Assembly: GCA_000146045.2 (NCBI GenBank) | Contig: BK006944.2 | Span: forward strand, 320,001 to 384,000 | Length of the DNA: 64,000 bases | From: TPA_inf: Saccharomyces | Lineage: Eukaryota | Direction of reading: 5' to 3' | Shown here: piece after piece, positions 1,015-64,000 of the stretch | How the letters are laid out: each line of letters opens with the position of its first letter | Position numbering within the stretch: position 1 is the stretch's first letter | Translations under genes and position numbers: made by a program | Notes under the pieces: generated by a model | Told to the model about the DNA's origin: nothing | Databases searched by the model: none | Seen by the model: the letters and a program-made list of their open reading frames with translations, nothing else

Positions 1015-1518
1015 TTAATTATCAAGGATTTCATTGTTAGCCAAATTTTCCTTGGCGAGATCTTGTTTCTCTTTCTGGAGTTGCTGTTTTTGTTCTTTTT
1101 TGTCCTTGTTTATTTGTTTTTGCTTTTCTGAATCAATTTGTGGTTTCAAATCGTTCTCCAAATTCTTTACTTCTTGTTGCTTTGCGACTTCATTATTGAA
1201 CTTTTCTTTAGGTACTTTAGCTTGTTGTGGTTGCTTATTGTTAGTCGCATCAGCTGCACCGCCGGCTGCAATATTGGTATGATCGCTTGCACTTGCAGAA
1301 ACATCAGAAGAATGGCTTTCTAGCTTGATCTCAGTTTCTTTATTCAGATCAGAATAGGCAACTTTTATAACGAAATAAACGCCACATAACAGTATAATGT
1401 ATACTATAATCTTTTTCATAGGGGTAGTCAGATAACCGCCCCTTCTTCTGGAATTATATTTGCTTCCTGTTTTATAACGAGGTAAAAGATCTTTTTTCCT
1501 TCTGATATCGCCCTGCAT
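1015..1518 (-). CDS. 167-aa lysine/glutamine-rich protein with a single N-terminal TM segment (Golgi-localised uncharacterised ORF YKL063C)
   Basis: A 167-aa ORF begins at ATG (cat at 1516-1518). Its size and position between MNR2 and MSN4 match YKL063C. Confidence 0.65.
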   Translation of the reverse strand: MQGDIRRKKDLLPRYKTGSKYNSRRRGGYLTTPMKKIIVYIILLCGVYFVIKVAYSDLNKETEIKLESHSSDVSASASDHTNIAAGGAADATNNKQPQQAKVPKEKFNNEVAKQQEVKNLENDLKPQIDSEKQKQINKDKKEQKQQLQKEKQDLAKENLANNEILDN

Positions 1519-1765
1519 ATTTTCTATAATTATGAATCACTTTAGTTTGATTTATATTTGCTCAGAATACCCTAGCTTTATCTATATAGTACTACTACTT
1601 TGGAGGGGAGGAACGTATGTTGGAAGGCAATAGCACTCTGGTAAAGTGCTAACTCTTAATGTTAATGACGAAATCACTTTTTTTGCCTTTCTGAAAGATT
1701 GGAAGACTGTCACTGAGAAATTCGCTATTCTTTTCTTTTTCTTCGTGTTTTTTTTTGTTAGAATA

Positions 1766-1812
1766 CTGCACAGCTTGCTATCCCGCTGCACAGCTTGCTA
1801 TCCCGCTGCACA
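1766..1812. repeat. Perfect tandem duplication of a 20-bp unit (CAGCTTGCTATCCCGCTGCA ×2)
   Basis: Copy 1 is at 1771-1790 and copy 2 at 1791-1810. The block is flanked by partial CTGCA/CA. Confidence 0.85.
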
Positions 1813-2329
1813 ACATGAAATTGCTCACGTCGTGCCAAATTACATATAGGTGCTTACCCTGTTTATATTTTTTGCCTTCATAGCGGAGTTTTTAAGGGTA
1901 GCCCTTATGTTTTTAGCGTTCATTTGAACGAATGGCTAACGCTAAACGGAGAAGAGAGGAAAACAAGGCCGCTGGCGTTATTGCGCGTAAAAACAGGAGA
2001 TAAGCACTGTTTAACATACATTTCATTGAAAGCTTAAAGCCGCAAAAGATGAAGGGTTTTCAAAATTTTCATCTCTTGCAGTATAAGGATGCAGTGAATC
2101 TATCTACAGACAGTTGATAAAAACGTCTACCTTGCCTAGTGTACCCAGCTGCTGTCAACTTCTTTCCTTAGCGCGTAAAGAGCTATGTTTTCGATAAAAG
2201 ATGCAACATAAATGCTACGATGTAAGGCACCCAGGACCTCTGAAGGCAAAGAAGTTGTGAAATTTGAAAAATAATCGCTCAAAAAGGAATAATTGTCAAG
2301 CGTAACGATTTTTTTGATTTTCCGAAATC

Positions 2330-2358
2330 AGGGGAGGGGAAAAGAAAAGGGGAAGGGG
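2330..2358. promoter_or_regulatory. Cluster of four AGGGG (STRE, CCCCT on the other strand) pentamers within 29 bp, about 870 bp upstream of MSN4 and about 810 bp upstream of YKL063C
   Basis: AGGGG occurs at 2330, 2335, 2348 and 2354 (cAGGGGAGGGGaaaagaaAAGGGGAAGGGGtc). STRE is the Msn2/Msn4 binding element. Confidence 0.45.
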
Positions 2359-3227
2359 TCTCCTCACAGGTATTGTGAGCTCCAAGCAATCATTTTGCCA
2401 GCACTAGGAAATAATAAAATGAAAGAAAAAAACATACATAGAAAGTGCCGCTCCGGGGCATTTTGAGCGCGGCAAAAAAAGCCCGAAGATCCGTTCCTCG
2501 AAGGAACGGCAACCGCACACCAAGAAAAAGGGAAAAAGGTGGGGTTGGCTGTAAAGTACGAGCGCGGGGACGGATCCGTAACAATTTCTATGTGGGGCCA
2601 GCAGCCGGCTGCTGGTGGGTACTGTTGTACGAAGCGGTTGGTAGCGATGACAGTGGCCAGGGCTGCTAGGCATGGTGCCGTGAAAACCCAGCGCAAATGT
2701 CAGGCTGCAGGAACCGGCTTTCTCCCACGAGGTTTCACTGCTGGCGGCGTACTGGTCATTTTTAGAACCTGAAAACCCGAGCTAGAACTAGGACTCTTGA
2801 GCAATAAGGTTTGCGCATTGCTATTCTCCGGATAAACCAAACCCACCCTTTTAAGAGCGTTTAACAAAGGTCTCTTATCTATCAAAAGTATTATGGCTAT
2901 TTCTGGGATTCCGCTTGCGGGCCTTTCTACCCTCTTGATGCTACACATGTTTCCCTTAGATGCATGAGCATACCTGTAGGTACTTAAATTTTATTTTTAT
3001 GCATCTTATTTCTGTCTAAATTTGTATATAACAAGCAACTGCAGTTCTGTGATGTGTTTTTCGCAACTGGTCAACAGGCTTAAGAATTTTTCCGTCTCTT
3101 TCCGTTTTATTTCCAGAGAATTAACATTTATAGAGAAAAGAATTAAAACGTGAAATTTCCTTTTTGAATATTTAACGCCTTTATCAGTTCGGCTTTTTTT
3201 TCTTTTCTTCTTATTAAAAACAATATA

Positions 3228-5120
3228 ATGCTAGTCTTCGGACCTAATAGTAGTTTCGTTCGTCACGCAAACAAGAAACAAGAAGATTCGTCTATAATGA
3301 ACGAGCCAAACGGATTGATGGACCCGGTATTGAGCACAACCAACGTTTCTGCTACTTCTTCTAATGACAATTCTGCGAACAATAGCATATCTTCGCCGGA
3401 ATATACCTTTGGTCAATTCTCAATGGATTCTCCGCATAGAACGGACGCCACTAATACTCCAATTTTAACAGCGACAACTAATACGACTGCTAATAATAGT
3501 TTAATGAATTTAAAGGATACCGCCAGTTTAGCTACCAACTGGAAGTGGAAAAATTCCAATAACGCACAGTTCGTGAATGACGGTGAGAAACAAAGCAGTA
3601 ATGCTAATGGTAAGAAAAATGGTGGTGATAAGATATATAGTTCAGTAGCCACCCCTCAAGCTTTAAATGACGAATTGAAAAACTTGGAGCAACTAGAAAA
3701 GGTATTTTCTCCAATGAATCCTATCAATGACAGTCATTTTAATGAAAATATAGAATTATCGCCACACCAACATGCAACTTCTCCCAAGACAAACCTTCTT
3801 GAGGCAGAACCTTCAATATATTCCAATTTGTTTCTAGATGCTAGGTTACCAAACAACGCCAACAGTACAACAGGATTGAACGACAATGATTATAATCTAG
3901 ACGATACCAATAATGATAATACTAATAGCATGCAATCAATCTTAGAGGATTTTGTATCTTCAGAAGAAGCATTGAAGTTCATGCCGGACGCTGGTCGCGA
4001 CGCAAGAAGATACAGCGAGGTGGTTACCTCTTCCTTTCCTTCTATGACGGATTCTAGAAATTCGATCTCTCATTCGATAGAGTTTTGGAATCTCAATCAC
4101 AAAAATAGTAGCAACAGTAAACCCACTCAACAAATTATCCCTGAAGGTACTGCCACTACTGAGAGGCGTGGATCAACCATTTCACCTACTACCACTATAA
4201 ACAACTCTAATCCAAACTTCAAATTATTAGATCATGACGTTTCTCAAGCTCTGAGCGGTTATAGTATGGATTTTTCTAAGGACTCTGGTATAACAAAGCC
4301 AAAAAGCATTTCCTCTTCTTTAAATCGCATCTCCCATAGCAGTAGCACCACAAGGCAACAGCGTGCCTCTTTGCCCTTAATTCATGATATTGAATCTTTT
4401 GCAAATGATTCGGTGATGGCAAATCCTCTGTCTGATTCCGCATCATTTCTTTCAGAAGAAAATGAAGACGATGCTTTTGGTGCGCTAAATTACAATAGCT
4501 TAGATGCAACCACAATGTCGGCATTCGACAATAACGTAGACCCCTTCAACATTCTCAAGTCATCTCCGGCTCAGGATCAACAGTTTATCAAACCCTCTAT
4601 GATGTTGTCGGATAATGCCTCTGCTGCCGCTAAATTGGCGACTTCTGGTGTTGATAATATCACACCTACACCAGCTTTCCAAAGAAGAAGCTATGATATC
4701 TCGATGAACTCTTCGTTCAAAATACTTCCTACTAGTCAAGCTCACCATGCAGCTCAACATCATCAACAACAACCTACTAAACAGGCAACGGTAAGCCCAA
4801 ACACAAGAAGAAGAAAGTCGTCAAGTGTTACTTTAAGTCCAACTATTTCTCATAACAACAACAATGGTAAGGTTCCTGTCCAACCTCGGAAAAGGAAATC
4901 TATTACTACCATTGACCCCAACAACTACGATAAAAATAAACCTTTCAAGTGTAAAGACTGTGAGAAGGCATTCAGACGCAGTGAGCACTTGAAAAGGCAT
5001 ATAAGATCCGTTCATTCAACGGAACGCCCTTTTGCTTGTATGTTCTGTGAGAAAAAATTCAGTAGAAGTGACAATTTATCACAACATCTAAAAACTCACA
5101 AAAAGCACGGTGATTTTTGA
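3228..5120 (+). CDS. MSN4: Stress-responsive C2H2 zinc-finger transcription factor (binds STRE)
   Basis: The ORF is 630 aa. It has two C-terminal C2H2 fingers ([24 protein letters not shown] / [23 protein letters not shown]) and an S/N-rich N-terminus. The length and [10 protein letters not shown] start match MSN4. Confidence 0.9.
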
Positions 5121-44366: not shown

Positions 44367-45604
44367 GCGTTGCACGTTTCTTTTCATTTATTTGTGCGTG
44401 CTTTTACCTGTTTATAACTGTAGTCACCAAAGCTATGCTATACTCTAGACCTAACTTTTTCGTTTTGTATTTATTTAGCCGCTCGCTGGAGTTTTTTTTT
44501 TTTCGGTGATAAGATGATTTATATCAAACCGAAACAAGCGAAAAGTTTCTGTTCATCGACTATAAAATGGAAGAGAAAATTGGTCCATAGACTTTTCATG
44601 TGTACTTGTTTATGAGAAGAGACGCAGGAAGACCAGAAGTGAGGAATTCCCTTTGTTCAAGGATGAACAACGAAGCCAGATAACGTAAGGTTGCGCGCTG
44701 CATCAGTGCTAACCTTATTAGCTTTCTCTGGCTTTTTCGGTCTTTCCTATGTAACATAACATGTATATTCTATTTGTTTATGATGAGACCACGTCCTTAG
44801 TGACAATGCTATAAACCCAGCTCTTCGATTCGTTTTTAATGAAAGGGAGAAGATTTTTTTGTCAAACGCTCTGAGTAATAGAATATACATGCGACAACAT
44901 TTGTAGTTACTTGTCTTACGCTTCCTAGGGAACGGATCATCCGAGTAGAATATCATTTTACGGGATCACTTTATTCGGTGTGATTGCTCGTTAAGCCGCA
45001 CGACCATTTTATGGGCACGCTTCCGCAAGTTGGTTCTTTCATCAGAAGCTTTACCACGATTGGCAAGTCATGTAGCATGTGCGCTAACATCGTTTATCGT
45101 TTTCTGTGACGTGGCTTATGAGCACCAGAGACGAATAATCAACAGTACATCAAACAAAAGCTACGTCACCTCACCAATAATCCGAGCTTCTTGAAATGGC
45201 AGGTATTGGATTCATAAAATATGTCGCTGCTTTGTGCATTTTCCTTTAGTTTTTTCCTTTTTTTTCATGTAGCTAACTAAGCAAGACGATTATGGGAAGG
45301 GACCTTTTAAGGAAAAACAGGAAAAAAAAATAGTAGCAACTAGTAAAAATTCAAAAAATAAAAAAAGTCAAAATAAGAACACATCAGTTAGGAACCGTGC
45401 TTGGAGTTTTGAGACTGGAGTATTGTCCATCCAACATATTCTGCTCTTTCACCATAGACTTCGTTGGAAATCGCCTCTCCCTTGTACTATATTGTGCAGA
45501 ACCGTTCCCGCAATTTTCATTGGTGCAATAATAACACGCTTCTTCGATTCTCACATTTGTCAAGAAGCTGTACTCTTCTCTCAAACTCCAATATATTTCA
45601 AATT

Positions 45605-59679: not shown

Positions 59680-59753
59680 GGTTTCGTGGTCTAGTCGGTT
59701 ATGGCATCTGCTTAACACGCAGAACGTCCCCAGTTCGATCCTGGGCGAAATCA
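59680..59753 (+). tRNA. tV(AAC): tRNA-Val (anticodon AAC), intronless, 74 nt, CCA not encoded
   Basis: The sequence GGTTTCGTGGTCTAGTCGGTTATGGCATCTGCTTAACACGCAGAACGTCCCCAGTTCGATCCTGGGCGAAATCA folds as a cloverleaf. The 7-bp acceptor stem is GGTTTCG/CGAAATC, the anticodon loop is cTTAACAc, the A box is TGGTCTAGTCGG, and the B box is GTTCGATCC. Confidence 0.95.
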
Positions 59754-61858: not shown

Positions 61859-62520
61859 TGCAGTTGTGGGTACTGTTAGCGTCGTACGTATATCACAGAA
61901 TGGATAGAAGAAGGGGATATAGTTGTGGTCTTGCCTTGACTTGCGTTGCCTTGCCTTGTCTGTGTGTAATAGAGTTCTTTGTGGGATATCAGAGCGAATA
62001 AACTTCAGCGTCACAGTCTCGGTAGCAGTAGCTGTTAGGCAGTGACCTAGCAGTAGAGGAAACAGAATACAATGCAGTACGATTACGGTACAGAGGATAA
62101 CGAAGTAAACCACATTTACAGCGAGAACGAGAGACAGAAGGAGAGAGAGAACGAATGCGCCGGGCCGTGTCTATACTTGGCTCCACCAGCTGATGTGTGC
62201 ATTTTTTTTTTGTTCCCATTCGTTCTCTCACCAAGGGGAGGTGGAAAAGAAAAGAAGAAAAAGAAAGTAAGGAAGGTCCGCTGCGCCTCTCCTTTGCTGC
62301 TGTTGCATCCGGACATCACACCCAACACAAAACCCCGCGCGGCCGTCGTCAGTAACCGTTCCACCCATTCCTCCACGGTATGTAGATCGCTAAGCACGAT
62401 GTGTATGTTTTATGGATATGTGCCGATTTTTTCCGCATTTGGTATCATATTTTGTTTTGATAATTACCGTTCTTGTTATTGCTAGTTGCTTGGGTTAATG
62501 TTCTTGTGCTATTGTTGCTG

Positions 62521-62560
62521 TTGTTATTGTTTTTATTATTGTATTATTGTATTATTATTA

Positions 62561-62596
<36 letters not shown>
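62521..62596. repeat. (ATT)n / (TTA)n trinucleotide microsatellite (about 11 pure repeats plus degenerate flanks) between the IXR1 upstream region and the MAE1 3' end. It is followed by T11 and A-rich runs.
   Basis: The sequence is ttattgtattattgtattattattatattattattattattattattattattattac. Confidence 0.8.
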
Positions 62597-62715
62597 GGTA
62601 TGTCAAGTATTATTTTTTTTTTAAAAATAAAGAAAAAAATTGTACAAATATATATATTTATATATTACTCTATATGGTTTTTTTTTTTTAAGTGCAGGCG
62701 TTGGTTATGCTTCGT

Positions 62716-64000
62716 CTACAATTGGTTGGTGTGCACCGATGGGTCATGTTGGACCTTGATCATAGGTCTGTACACAGGCTCCCACATTTGGGCTTTGACC
62801 CACTGTAAACATTCGTCAAAGTCACGAGGAACCTTGACAGTTTCGCCGGGAGCTCCTCCCGGTACTTGTTCTTGCTCGATACGGGCGGTTCCCTCCTCGA
62901 GTGCTTGCAAGATCACAGCGGTAGCTAGACGCGCAGAAGTGTTGGTGATGGTGTCCAGGCCGGGTAGCAACCCAGGTCTCGAGTCGCCCTCTCTTAGTGG
63001 CGACAATTCGGCTAGTTGGTCCACTGCAGCGGAGATCATCTTGTCTGTGATGGTGGTGGCACGCGATAGTACGGCACCTAAACCGATACCTGGGAAAGAG
63101 TAACAATTGTTGTTCTCCGAGATACGGTAACCATCAACAGGTGGGAAAGGAGATCCGGTAGCTACAAGAGCGTTGTTGTTGGTCCACTTCATTAAATCGG
63201 CAGGAACGGCTTCGTGTAGTCTAGTAGGGTTGGATAATGGGAAAATGATCGGTCTAGGATTGTGCTTGTGCATTTCTTCTACGACATCTTGAGTGAATGC
63301 GCCTGCTTGTGTGGAGCAGCCAACCAAACACGTTGGTTTGACGTTCTCCACCACATCATGTAAAGAGCGGGTGTTGATACCAGCCCATTCCGCATCACTC
63401 TTAGCGTATACGTGTTGGGCGGGAGTGGAGTTAGCCTCGTAAGATTGTAGAATTAACCCACGTCTGTCCATCAAGAAGATTTTCTTGCGCGCTTCTTCCT
63501 TGTCAACGCCGTGCGTGACCATATGATTCACAATTTGATCTGCGATACCGAGGCCCGCAGACCCGGCACCGTAAATAAGCACTCTGGTGTCTTTCAAGTC
63601 TCTGTTGGTATGTTTCAAAGCAGCAATCAACGAGGCCATCACGACGGCACCGGTGCCCTGAATGTCATCGTTGAATGATGGCAATTCGTACCTGTACTTT
63701 TCTAGTAATCTTCTAGCGTTCTTAACACCGAAATCTTCGAAATGCAGAACGGCGCTTGGATACACTTTCTTAACGGCCTTGATGAATTTTTCCAAGAAGT
63801 CGTCATATTGCTTACCCCTGATTCTGGAGAACTTGTTACCCATGTACAATTCGTCACGGGCTAGTTTCTTGTTGTTAGTACCGACGTCCAAACACACAGG
63901 TAGCACACGGCCGGGATGAATACCACCGCACAGCGTCATCAATGCCAATTTGGAGATAGCAATACGTACACCACCGATACCTTGGTCACCAATTCCCAGA
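62716..64000 (-). CDS. MAE1: Mitochondrial NAD(P)-dependent malic enzyme. Only the C-terminal roughly 430 codons are present, and the N-terminus lies beyond the window end.
   Basis: The malic-enzyme NAD-binding region (VLIYGAGSAGLGIADQIV, FNDDIQGTGAVVMASLIAA) is present. The frame stays open to position 64000. Confidence 0.9.
   Translation of the reverse strand, partial: LGIGDQGIGGVRIAISKLALMTLCGGIHPGRVLPVCLDVGTNNKKLARDELYMGNKFSRIRGKQYDDFLEKFIKAVKKVYPSAVLHFEDFGVKNARRLLEKYRYELPSFNDDIQGTGAVVMASLIAALKHTNRDLKDTRVLIYGAGSAGLGIADQIVNHMVTHGVDKEEARKKIFLMDRRGLILQSYEANSTPAQHVYAKSDAEWAGINTRSLHDVVENVKPTCLVGCSTQAGAFTQDVVEEMHKHNPRPIIFPLSNPTRLHEAVPADLMKWTNNNALVATGSPFPPVDGYRISENNNCYSFPGIGLGAVLSRATTITDKMISAAVDQLAELSPLREGDSRPGLLPGLDTITNTSARLATAVILQALEEGTARIEQEQVPGGAPGETVKVPRDFDECLQWVKAQMWEPVYRPMIKVQHDPSVHTNQL

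Follow-up and report, generated by a model that had tools for sequence, protein, structure and literature searches.

The DNA upstream of MSN4 very probably constitutes an unusually long cis-regulatory region of this gene, about 870 bp in extent, that is held under purifying selection (positions 2201–3070, plus strand, of the window, by which we mean the whole 64-kb stretch of DNA that was analyzed). This conserved block, which extends from approximately −1030 to −160 with respect to the MSN4 ATG and includes most of the elements mapped below, runs into the MSN4 TATA box and can therefore be attributed to MSN4. Of Msn2 and Msn4, the two factors behind the general stress response of yeast, the gene encodes the inducible one. 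Its coding sequence (630 aa; 3228–5120, plus strand) is an open reading frame (ORF) whose product is 83% identical to the Saccharomyces kudriavzevii protein named MSN4, and the divergent ORF on its upstream side, YKL063C (167 aa; 1015–1518, minus strand), is syntenic in all of the related loci. The region is an ordinary, largely known complex promoter whose regulatory logic is already known; it does not otherwise differ from regular regulatory DNA, and current understanding is left unchanged.

The induction of MSN4 by stress and its dependence on Msn2 have been reported (PMC13187839; Gasch 2000, as cited in PMC5634782), and both ChEC-seq and ChIP-seq data have been generated for Msn2/Msn4 (PRJNA573518; PMC5634782). 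According to Chapal et al. [quoted passage not shown] In all of these respects, i.e., the TATA box, the TSS near −105, the numerous TF sites and the need for upstream sequence, the region matches the “flexible/noisy” multi-input promoter of these authors, and conservation that reaches so far upstream is likewise that of a long multi-input promoter. The accessible portion of the same text makes no mention of GC richness, of an STRE quartet or of a footprint map. Among the other published regulators, Sok2 represses MSN4 (PMC1175993), and a network derived from location data gives as its inputs Hal9, which is a zinc-cluster factor, Phd1 and Rap1 (PMC4636536).

The initial annotation of this DNA had singled out an exceptionally GC-rich island (2440–2780), and this observation was confirmed: the GC content of the island is 56.3% versus 38.7% for the window, which ranks it first among the 341-bp stretches of the 64 kb, and it amounts to 55–58% in each of six Saccharomyces species. 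The conservation of the GC block within the genus, for which a check had been recommended, is also upheld, with 51% of the columns in the island invariant among the six species as against 26–29% in three neighboring intergenic regions. For the entire block 2201–3070 the corresponding values are 51–67%, and for the coding sequences of MSN4, YKL063C and BLI1 they are 60–64%; the YKL063C-proximal half of the intergenic region has 27%. Invariant runs of at least 7 bp account for 18.5% of the bases of 2201–3070 versus 3.8% of those of 1519–2200. Inside the island the A/T positions are conserved equally with the G/C positions (49% and 53%, respectively), and therefore selection has acted on the sequence and not on composition alone. 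This conservation takes the form of short footprints, densely arrayed amid variable DNA in which indels of 1, 2, 4, 5, 7, and 14 bp have occurred. Such a combination of footprints, frame-breaking indels and absence of a three-base periodicity is, as judged from the alignment, the signature of putative protein-binding sites.

Within the block, four AGGGG pentamers, all of them on the plus strand (starting at 2330, 2335, 2348, and 2354), are packed into the 29 bp of 2330–2358 (AGGGGAGGGGAAAAGAAAAGGGGAAGGGG) and presumably form a binding cluster for Msn2/Msn4. This STRE quartet had been noted in the initial annotation as four AGGGG/CCCCT pentamers, and it proves to be the only cluster of its kind in the 64 kb: the window contains 60 such pentamers and every other 29-bp span holds at most two of them. 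When the window was shuffled 200 times with its dinucleotides preserved, the largest cluster comprised one or two pentamers in 199 shuffles, three in one and four in none. The quartet is situated inside a 40-bp footprint that is nearly invariant among the six Saccharomyces species; three of its sites have been kept in all six and the fourth in five (it is AGGGA in S. kudriavzevii). Two of the marks of an STRE upstream activating sequence (UAS), at least two core pentamers and conservation in relatives, are present in the quartet. Its near invariance fits the published Msn2-dependent induction of MSN4, and cross- or autoregulation via the STREs is the natural reading of these presumed Msn2/Msn4 sites. 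The earlier suggestion that Msn2/4 and Hsf1 together regulate the gene consequently survives in its first half, which the conserved STREs and the published Msn2 dependence support, but not in its second, as the region has no heat-shock element (HSE; see below).

The quartet is ~900 bp from the MSN4 ATG; it precedes the reported TSS by ~790 bp, a long distance for a UAS in yeast, and it lies ~810 bp from the start of the divergent YKL063C. We infer that the STREs serve MSN4 and not YKL063C, an action on the latter being possible. In its closely spaced AGGGG/CCCCT pentamers, a presumed Msn2/Msn4 UAS, MSN4 resembles the STRE promoters CTT1, DDR2, and HSP12 (Martinez-Pastor 1996; Schmitt and McEntee 1996; both as cited in PMC3203618). 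It departs from these typical cases, however, in that its cluster is farther out, in that all four STREs have the same orientation and lie within a purine tract, and in that the target itself encodes an STRE-binding factor, which would close a positive loop. No STRE cluster was found upstream of the MSN orthologues in Naumovozyma castellii or in two further related loci (L009 and L010), a distribution that fits the proposal, made in PMC6874299, that MSN4 gained binding sites after the duplication.

The six-species alignment resolves a series of further footprints, and we have paired these with candidate factors by their resemblance to consensus motifs. Directly 5′ of the STREs, GATTTTCCG (2316–2324, minus strand) is invariant in all six species; CGGAAAA, the reverse complement within it, matches the Rgt1-type consensus CGGANNA, making Rgt1 a candidate assignment. 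In the island an A-tract followed by GTGGGG, AAAAAGGTGGGGTT (2529–2546, plus strand), has its TGGGGTT invariant in all six species and its full pattern kept in five, and it matches WWWWWNSYGGGG, presumably a Mig1-type pattern, for a candidate assignment to Mig1. A little downstream of it, GCGGGG precedes the 10-bp palindrome ACGGATCCGT (CGG-N2-CCG; the two together at 2564–2579), and GGGGACGG is invariant here. The footprint GGCTGCAGGAACC (2703–2715, plus strand), also invariant in six of six, contains TGCAGGAA, which matches TGCAGNNA, the Sok2/Phd1-type consensus, and is again a candidate assignment; a second match to this consensus, TGCAGTGA, occurs in the invariant footprint GATGCAGTGAA (2088–2098, plus strand), which is isolated and upstream of the block. 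Toward the core promoter there follow the invariant footprints CATTTTTAGAAC and CGAGCTAGAAC (2757–2788, plus strand), then GCAATAAGGTTT and CTCCGGATAAACCA (2801–2839, plus strand), the last of which contains GATAA and CGGATAA, and an invariant CTTATCT (2874–2880, minus strand), the reverse complement of a GATAAG-type GATA-factor core. The TATA box footprint TATATAACAAGCA (3025–3037, plus strand), ~200 bp upstream of the ATG, is invariant in all six species. The ACGG-NN-CCGT, A-tract plus GTGGGG, TGCAG..A, GATAA, and TATA footprints thus suggest that further candidate factors act on this promoter.

Among these elements ACGG-NN-CCGT (2570–2579) appears to be the best candidate for a site of the zinc-cluster type. 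Its half-sites are kept in all six species while the letters of the spacer vary (AT, TT, CT), as would be expected for a dimeric zinc-cluster site, and two CGG triplets in a fixed spacing and orientation, with conserved half-sites, are all found in it. The initial annotation had proposed for this role (binding by Zn2Cys6 factors) a CCG-N3-CGG element, CCGCTCCGG, which does exist, at 2448–2456 and not 2446–2454, and the idea is plausible; this possible zinc-cluster site is, however, intact in only four of the six species, having lost its left half in S. kudriavzevii and its right half in S. uvarum, and ACGG-NN-CCGT is the better candidate. A link of the latter to Hal9/Tbs1 may be presumed on the basis of an in vitro motif, CGGATCCG. 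The sites of zinc-cluster (Zn2Cys6) factors consist of paired CGG triplets with a factor-specific spacing and orientation (PMC9000951), and ACGG-NN-CCGT resembles them in having retained both its half-sites and their spacing in the six species.

A working scheme for this promoter can be proposed, in which the four tandem STREs at about −900 would act as a distal UAS. When cells are stressed or have reached a high density, Msn2 in the nucleus would occupy this UAS and induce MSN4, and the newly made Msn4 could act on it likewise, which would add a positive autoregulatory step to the feed-forward one. The island, between the STREs and the TATA-containing core promoter, would then be a mosaic of short sites, mostly for GC-specific factors: the CGG pairs of zinc-cluster proteins, C2H2 G-boxes of the Mig1/Msn type and the TGCA-core sites of APSES proteins (Sok2/Phd1). 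Factors bound there might integrate glucose/PKA and other signals and set a repressed basal state. The high GC content could result from the density of such GC-rich sites and possibly also from a selection for nucleosome-favoring DNA; the density of sites may fall short of explaining 55–58% GC over 340 bp. In any event the base-level footprint map (the STREs, CGG-N2-CCG, the A-tract plus GTGGGG, the two TGCAGNNA sites, the GATA cores, and the TATA box) offers testable targets for working out how one promoter combines feed-forward by Msn2, autoregulation by Msn4 and PKA/glucose repression, and it sets the conserved elements apart from an 18-bp palindrome and a pseudo-HSE that are specific to one species.

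The pseudo-HSE is the inverted repeat CCGTTCC-TCGAA-GGAACGG, which is present, at 2491–2509 and not at 2490–2508, but which does not merit its designation as a heat-shock element. The repeat does contain TTC and GAA triplets; it is nevertheless extremely unlikely that these constitute an HSE through which Hsf1 co-regulates MSN4, as their spacing is N3 versus the N2 of nTTCnnGAAn, and as the right arm GGAACGG is peculiar to S. cerevisiae, its counterpart being GAGGG or AAGGG in each of the other five species. Even two-unit HSE matches are absent from the island, and a search of the 1.7-kb intergenic region (1519–3227) and of its orthologues in the other five species turned up no three-unit HSE of the perfect or the gap type; the sole three-unit match has the step-type pattern and is located outside the island, at −132 in S. 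eubayanus. A perfect palindrome, which had been described as a 16-mer at 2597–2612, is likewise real; it is in fact the 18-mer CCAGCAGCCGGCTGCTGG (2598–2615), with the 16-mer at 2599–2614, but it is not conserved. It coincides with a deletion-prone spot, where 7 bp are missing in both S. kudriavzevii and S. uvarum and 14 bp in S. eubayanus, and it has two mismatches in locus L005 and one in S. arboricola. Among 2000 shuffled versions of the island, 0.65% contain a palindrome of at least 16 bp (P ~0.0065). The only other island palindrome of at least 10 bp is the ACGGATCCGT at 2570–2579, and these two, versus 0.34 expected (P ~0.04), make the description “palindrome-rich” a marginal one. It is scarcely credible that the island codes for a protein, whether as a full gene or as a small ORF, or that it is the decaying remnant of a gene that was lost following the whole-genome duplication. 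Six overlapping stop-free ORFs of 64–110 aa do exist on its two strands, as the initial annotation stated, and they are a by-product of GC richness; moreover, a gene caller predicts a 54-aa ORF at the equivalent position of locus L005. Against a coding function, the six island ORFs have no Pfam match even at E=10, the variable columns number 44, 47, and 49 in the three phases (p=0.94) and so have no three-base periodicity, the lengths of many indels are not divisible by three, and each species has its own ORF boundaries. In the unduplicated gene order (locus L009; SUB1-MNR2-CCS1-YKL063C-MSN-kinase-MIH1-IMP2), furthermore, the gap between the YKL063C and MSN homologues is only 486 bp and has no gene inside it. 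On the combined evidence of Pfam, periodicity, indels, the ORF maps of the individual species and this ancestral-type gene order, a coding or relic gene was rejected.

A conservation that approaches the coding level over hundreds of base pairs and yet carries no coding signal could also be that of a noncoding RNA, whether a structured small RNA, or a CUT/SUT or 5′-extended MSN4 isoform that modulates MSN4; we consider such an RNA unlikely. The folding z-scores of the island reach about −2.5 on both strands in S. uvarum and about −2 on the minus strand in S. arboricola and S. eubayanus, and one 120-nt window of the S. cerevisiae minus strand (2440–2559) has z=−2.98. For the island as a whole, however, the two strands of S. 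cerevisiae have z-scores of +0.16 and −0.70, and three other species have values near 0; the extremes over the six species and both strands are −2.5 and +0.8, and the majority of the values lie close to 0. With RNAalifold the covariation term is unfavorable on both strands (+2.3 and +3.0 kcal/mol); double changes affect 5 of 83 pairs, and the observed covariation measures were reached by 34–57 of 500 shuffles, a comparison that has little power with six sequences. The strongest local hairpins, formed by the 2491–2509 repeat and the 18-bp palindrome, are species-specific, and in the long-range pairing of GATCCG with CGGATC both S. uvarum and S. eubayanus have uncompensated changes in one arm. 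At the gathering threshold an Rfam search of the whole window returned nothing in this region, and one of 1500–3300 at E up to 10 returned only chance-level matches (E >3) and no family; a tRNA scan had no result there, and a look by eye alone for box C/D, H/ACA, B-box/TFIIIC, and ARS consensus sequences disclosed no conserved match. Literature searches on an MSN4 LUTI, antisense or upstream transcript brought up nothing specific and hardly any mention of YKL063C. The evidence for RNA structure in the island is hence weak and inconsistent, and the stable structured ncRNA that the initial annotation had offered as an alternative is not supported, for lack of an Rfam match, of a consistent folding excess and of covariation above that of shuffles; all of these results are compatible with a regulatory transcript that has no structure. 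A different possibility is that the GC content is mainly compositional, a nucleosome-favoring platform or the product of GC-biased gene conversion at a promoter recombination hotspot, to which the footprints would be secondary. In its favor, the 200-bp window with the maximum GC content of the locus lies upstream of the MSN gene also at S. cerevisiae MSN2 (56%), in N. castellii (48% in a locus of 36% GC) and in L010 (56% in a locus of 34% GC), and the nucleosomes upstream of these two paralogues, MSN2 and MSN4, have a similar pattern (PMC6874299). The equal conservation of A/T and G/C positions and the invariant strings of 7–14 bp are, by contrast, unexpected from pure composition or biased conversion, and PMC6874299 describes the required upstream region as nucleosome-free and TF-bound and not as a nucleosome platform. 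We therefore regard a mainly compositional origin as very unlikely; biased conversion as the sole cause is unlikely given the equal conservation of the A/T positions, and the compositional view can coexist with the mosaic of sites proposed above for the MSN4 promoter.

The GC peaks upstream of MSN2 and of distant orthologues that have no STRE cluster hint, all the same, at an additional role for composition. For MSN4, for its paralogue MSN2 and for orthologues from at least two further genera the GC maximum of the locus is upstream of the gene, with STREs or without them, and we would give a small but not negligible chance to the idea that a GC-rich island upstream of the MSN2/MSN4 family is an ancient promoter feature that is set by composition and not by sequence. 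If this were true, such a feature would encode something beyond TF motifs, for example, a nucleosome or chromatin platform that is programmed in the DNA and determines how noisy and how responsive the master stress regulators are, or, alternatively, the template for an upstream regulatory transcript that is conserved yet evolves fast. Between the MSN4 island and the upstream regions of MSN2, N. castellii, L009, and L010 there is only chance-level similarity by blastn (word size 7) or shared 8-mers; the 11-mer GAACCGGCTTT, which is common to the MSN4 and MSN2 upstream regions, is not conserved within Saccharomyces. MSN2 differs from MSN4 in having a single STRE and no quartet, with no alignable similarity upstream, and, according to PMC6874299, in its lack of a TATA box, its TSS at about −430 and its constitutive expression. 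Its upstream region (L008) nevertheless resembles that of MSN4 in containing the GC maximum of its locus, in a 200-bp window at approximately −850 to −650, and the CGG triplets number 22 in 360 bp upstream of MSN2 versus 19 in 371 bp upstream of MSN4.

In this stretch of Saccharomyces cerevisiae DNA, the GC-rich island at 2440-2780 and the neighbouring STRE quartet fall between -898 and -448 relative to the ATG of MSN4, within the 1709-bp intergenic region that separates MSN4 (3228-5120, + strand) from a divergent upstream ORF of 167 aa read as YKL063C (1015-1518, - strand). The 630-aa MSN4 product shares 99% identity with a protein cluster of 270 members and 83% with the S. kudriavzevii protein named MSN4 by NCBI; the 3' end of MNR2 (CorA family) is also found upstream of the gene, with BLI1 and the aldolase gene FBA1 downstream. 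A search with the MSN4 protein, followed by look-up of the encoding contigs, provided orthologous loci from S. kudriavzevii (L001), S. arboricola (L003), S. uvarum (L004), S. eubayanus (L006) and an isolate with 90% protein identity that is probably S. paradoxus (L005). These five loci have the same gene order and an intergenic length of 1669-1724 bp. The more distant loci compared were those of N. castellii (L007) and two further yeasts (L009, L010), together with S. cerevisiae MSN2 (L008).

The GC-richness remarked on in the initial annotation is indeed unusual: at 56.3%, against 38.7% in the window, the island ranks first among all 341-bp stretches, and it has 55-58% GC in each of the six species, the remaining intergenic sequence having 37-42%. 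Conservation was measured as invariant columns in a six-species alignment of the MSN4 intergenic region. Such columns make up 27% of the YKL063C-proximal part (1519-2200), 26-29% of three neighbouring intergenic regions and 60-64% of the coding sequences of MSN4, YKL063C and BLI1. Within the block from 2201 to 3070 the values are 60% for 2201-2329, 69% for the STRE quartet, 67% for 2751-2900 and 51% for the island; the poor conservation across Saccharomyces that would have told against the initial reading is not seen. Invariant stretches 7 bp or longer take in 18.5% of the block's bases, versus 3.8% in 1519-2200. In the island A/T positions (49%) are conserved like G/C positions (53%), the figures for the unconstrained half being 30% and 22%, and it is therefore the sequence, beyond its composition, that is constrained. 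The window's second GC peak (62690-63190, 54-55% GC over 341 bp) sits where two opposite-strand ORFs overlap (62486-63103, +, 205 aa; 62716-63948, -, 410 aa) and probably marks GC-rich coding sequence whose antisense ORF is spurious.

The simplest account of 2201-3070 is that it constitutes an extended cis-regulatory region of MSN4. The four packed AGGGG pentamers start at 2330, 2335, 2348 and 2354, all on the + strand; elsewhere the AGGGG/CCCCT pentamers of the window (n=60 in all) reach at most two per 29-bp span, and when the window was shuffled 200 times with dinucleotides preserved, four in 29 bp never occurred. Almost no variation is seen in the quartet or its 5' flank (GATTTTCCG, followed by AATCAGGGGAGG and then AAAGGGGAAGGG): three of the sites are kept in all six species and the fourth in five. 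Two reports citing Gasch 2000 (PMC13187839, PMC5634782) give MSN4 as stress-induced in an Msn2-dependent manner and MSN2 as not stress-induced; this induction and the conserved quartet together support the proposed regulation of MSN4 by Msn2/4, which is already textbook knowledge. Chapal et al. [quoted passage not shown] The authors further suggest that MSN4 acquired TF sites following the whole-genome duplication, and in agreement with this we find STRE clusters neither upstream of MSN2 nor upstream of the orthologues in N. castellii, L009 and L010. Sok2 acts upstream of MSN4 as a repressor, an inference that was validated (PMC1175993), a location-data network gives MSN4 inputs from Phd1, Rap1 and the zinc-cluster factor Hal9 (PMC4636536), and paired CGG triplets at fixed spacing are read by zinc-cluster dimers (PMC9000951). 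In such a regulatory region, a distal STRE UAS would be used first by Msn2 and then by Msn4 itself to activate MSN4, a GC-rich mosaic would offer sites for GC-specific repressors and activators, and a TATA core promoter would occupy the MSN4-proximal end. The island would be GC-rich largely because of dense CGG- and G-box-type sites; it is a promoter module, ordinary though unusually well conserved.

The useful product of this comparison is a footprint map, together with a list of conspicuous motifs that lack conservation. Factor names for these better-conserved footprints come from consensus motifs, and the assignments are candidate only. ACGG-NN-CCGT (2570-2579), with half-sites kept in all six species and variable spacer letters, is presumably a candidate zinc-cluster-type site; AAAAAGGTGGGGTT (2529-2546), kept as a pattern in five of six, we take as a candidate Mig1-type pattern, and GGGGACGG (2566-2573) is invariant. 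Both GGCTGCAGGAACC (2703-2715) and GATGCAGTGAA (2088-2098) match TGCAGNNA, which we take to be a Sok2/Phd1-type consensus, and are candidate sites for it. Further footprints, given no factor name, are CATTTTTAGAAC (2757-2768), CGAGCTAGAAC (2778-2788) and GCAATAAGGTTT (2801-2812); CTCCGGATAAACCA (2826-2839) has a GATAA core inside, CTTATCT (2874-2880) is the reverse complement of a GATA core, and TATATAACAAGCA (3025-3037) is a TATA box.

Among the conspicuous motifs, the palindrome first given as 16 bp is perfect but longer, an 18-mer (CCAGCAGCCGGCTGCTGG, 2598-2615); palindromes of at least 16 bp arise in 0.65% of 2000 island shuffles. Its orthologues are imperfect (two mismatches in L005, one in S. 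arboricola) or shortened, S. kudriavzevii and S. uvarum having lost 7 bp and S. eubayanus 14 bp through deletion. Mismatched or deleted in the other five species, it is unsupported as a meaningful element and, from these alignments, is under no constraint and apparently prone to deletion. The inverted repeat CCGTTCC-TCGAA-GGAACGG is present at 2491-2509, with a right arm (GGAACGG) found in S. cerevisiae only. It had been likened to a heat-shock element; its spacing is TTC-N3-GAA, no perfect or gap-type three-unit HSE was found in the intergenic region of the six species, and the Hsf1 proposal is therefore rejected. The sole three-unit match, of the step type, is in S. eubayanus, where it lies at -132 and outside the island. 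The CCG-N3-CGG element (CCGCTCCGG, 2448-2456) is intact in four of six species. Every element described was found, and the description was therefore correct save for 2-bp offsets.

A structured ncRNA had been the alternative offered, and the island does contain eye-catching hairpins; these are species-specific, and neither Rfam, which gave nothing in the region, nor the folding analyses support it. In S. cerevisiae the two strands fold with z-scores of +0.16 and -0.70, and across the six species z ranges from +0.8 to -2.5, inconsistently as to strand and near zero for the + strand in four; the RNAalifold covariation term is unfavourable on both strands, and the covariation measures of its structure were attained in 34-57 of 500 shuffles. 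GATCCGTTCC (2488-2497) and GGGACGGATC (2567-2576) form a long-range inverted repeat with both arms conserved; the right arm is altered in S. uvarum and S. eubayanus without compensation in the left, which points away from base pairing and towards putative repeated copies of a protein site of CGGATC type. An unstructured upstream transcript may cover the region; a literature search for one here found no report. The overlapping stop-free ORFs of the island are also present, and a coding role was rejected: variable columns spread evenly over codon phases (44, 47, 49; p=0.94), indels of 1, 2, 4, 5, 7 and 14 bp are frequent, the limits of the stop-free stretches differ species by species, and Pfam gave no family match for the six ORFs even at E=10. 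At L009 (1-12088) the order PC4(SUB1)-CorA(MNR2)-HMA(CCS1)-144 aa-MSN-kinase-Rhodanese(MIH1)-Peptidase_S26(IMP2), with YKL063C in the 144-aa position, interleaves the neighbourhoods that MSN4 and MSN2 have in S. cerevisiae and therefore looks like the pre-duplication arrangement; since only 486 bp separate its YKL063C and MSN homologues, no ancestral gene was lost at the position of the island. The stop-free frames do attract false gene predictions, as an automatic 54-aa call within the orthologous island of L005 (5247-5411) illustrates.

The locus-wide GC-richest 200 bp also lie upstream of the MSN gene at MSN2 (L008, 1221-1420), in N. castellii (L007, 7431-7630) and at L010 (4091-4290), and none of these regions can be aligned with the MSN4 island. 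Because such maxima recur without sequence similarity, composition itself may matter, for example to nucleosome behaviour.

The otherwise poorly conserved YKL063C-proximal half holds two isolated conserved footprints: TTCTTTTTCTTCGTG (1733-1747), invariant in all six species, and a Reb1-like TTACCC (1851-1857), as TTACCCT or TTACCCG. Between them, at 1766-1805, the 20-bp unit CTGCACAGCTTGCTATCCCG forms a perfect tandem duplication followed by a degenerate third start; only S. cerevisiae has the duplication, a single copy being present in the other five species, and in S. uvarum a GTGA/GCTGT microsatellite is inserted a few bp upstream of that position. Elsewhere in the window are the C/D box snoRNA snR69 (44776-44876, +; Rfam RF00475, 89.5 bits, E 1.8e-13) and a tRNA-Val(AAC) gene (59680-59753, +).
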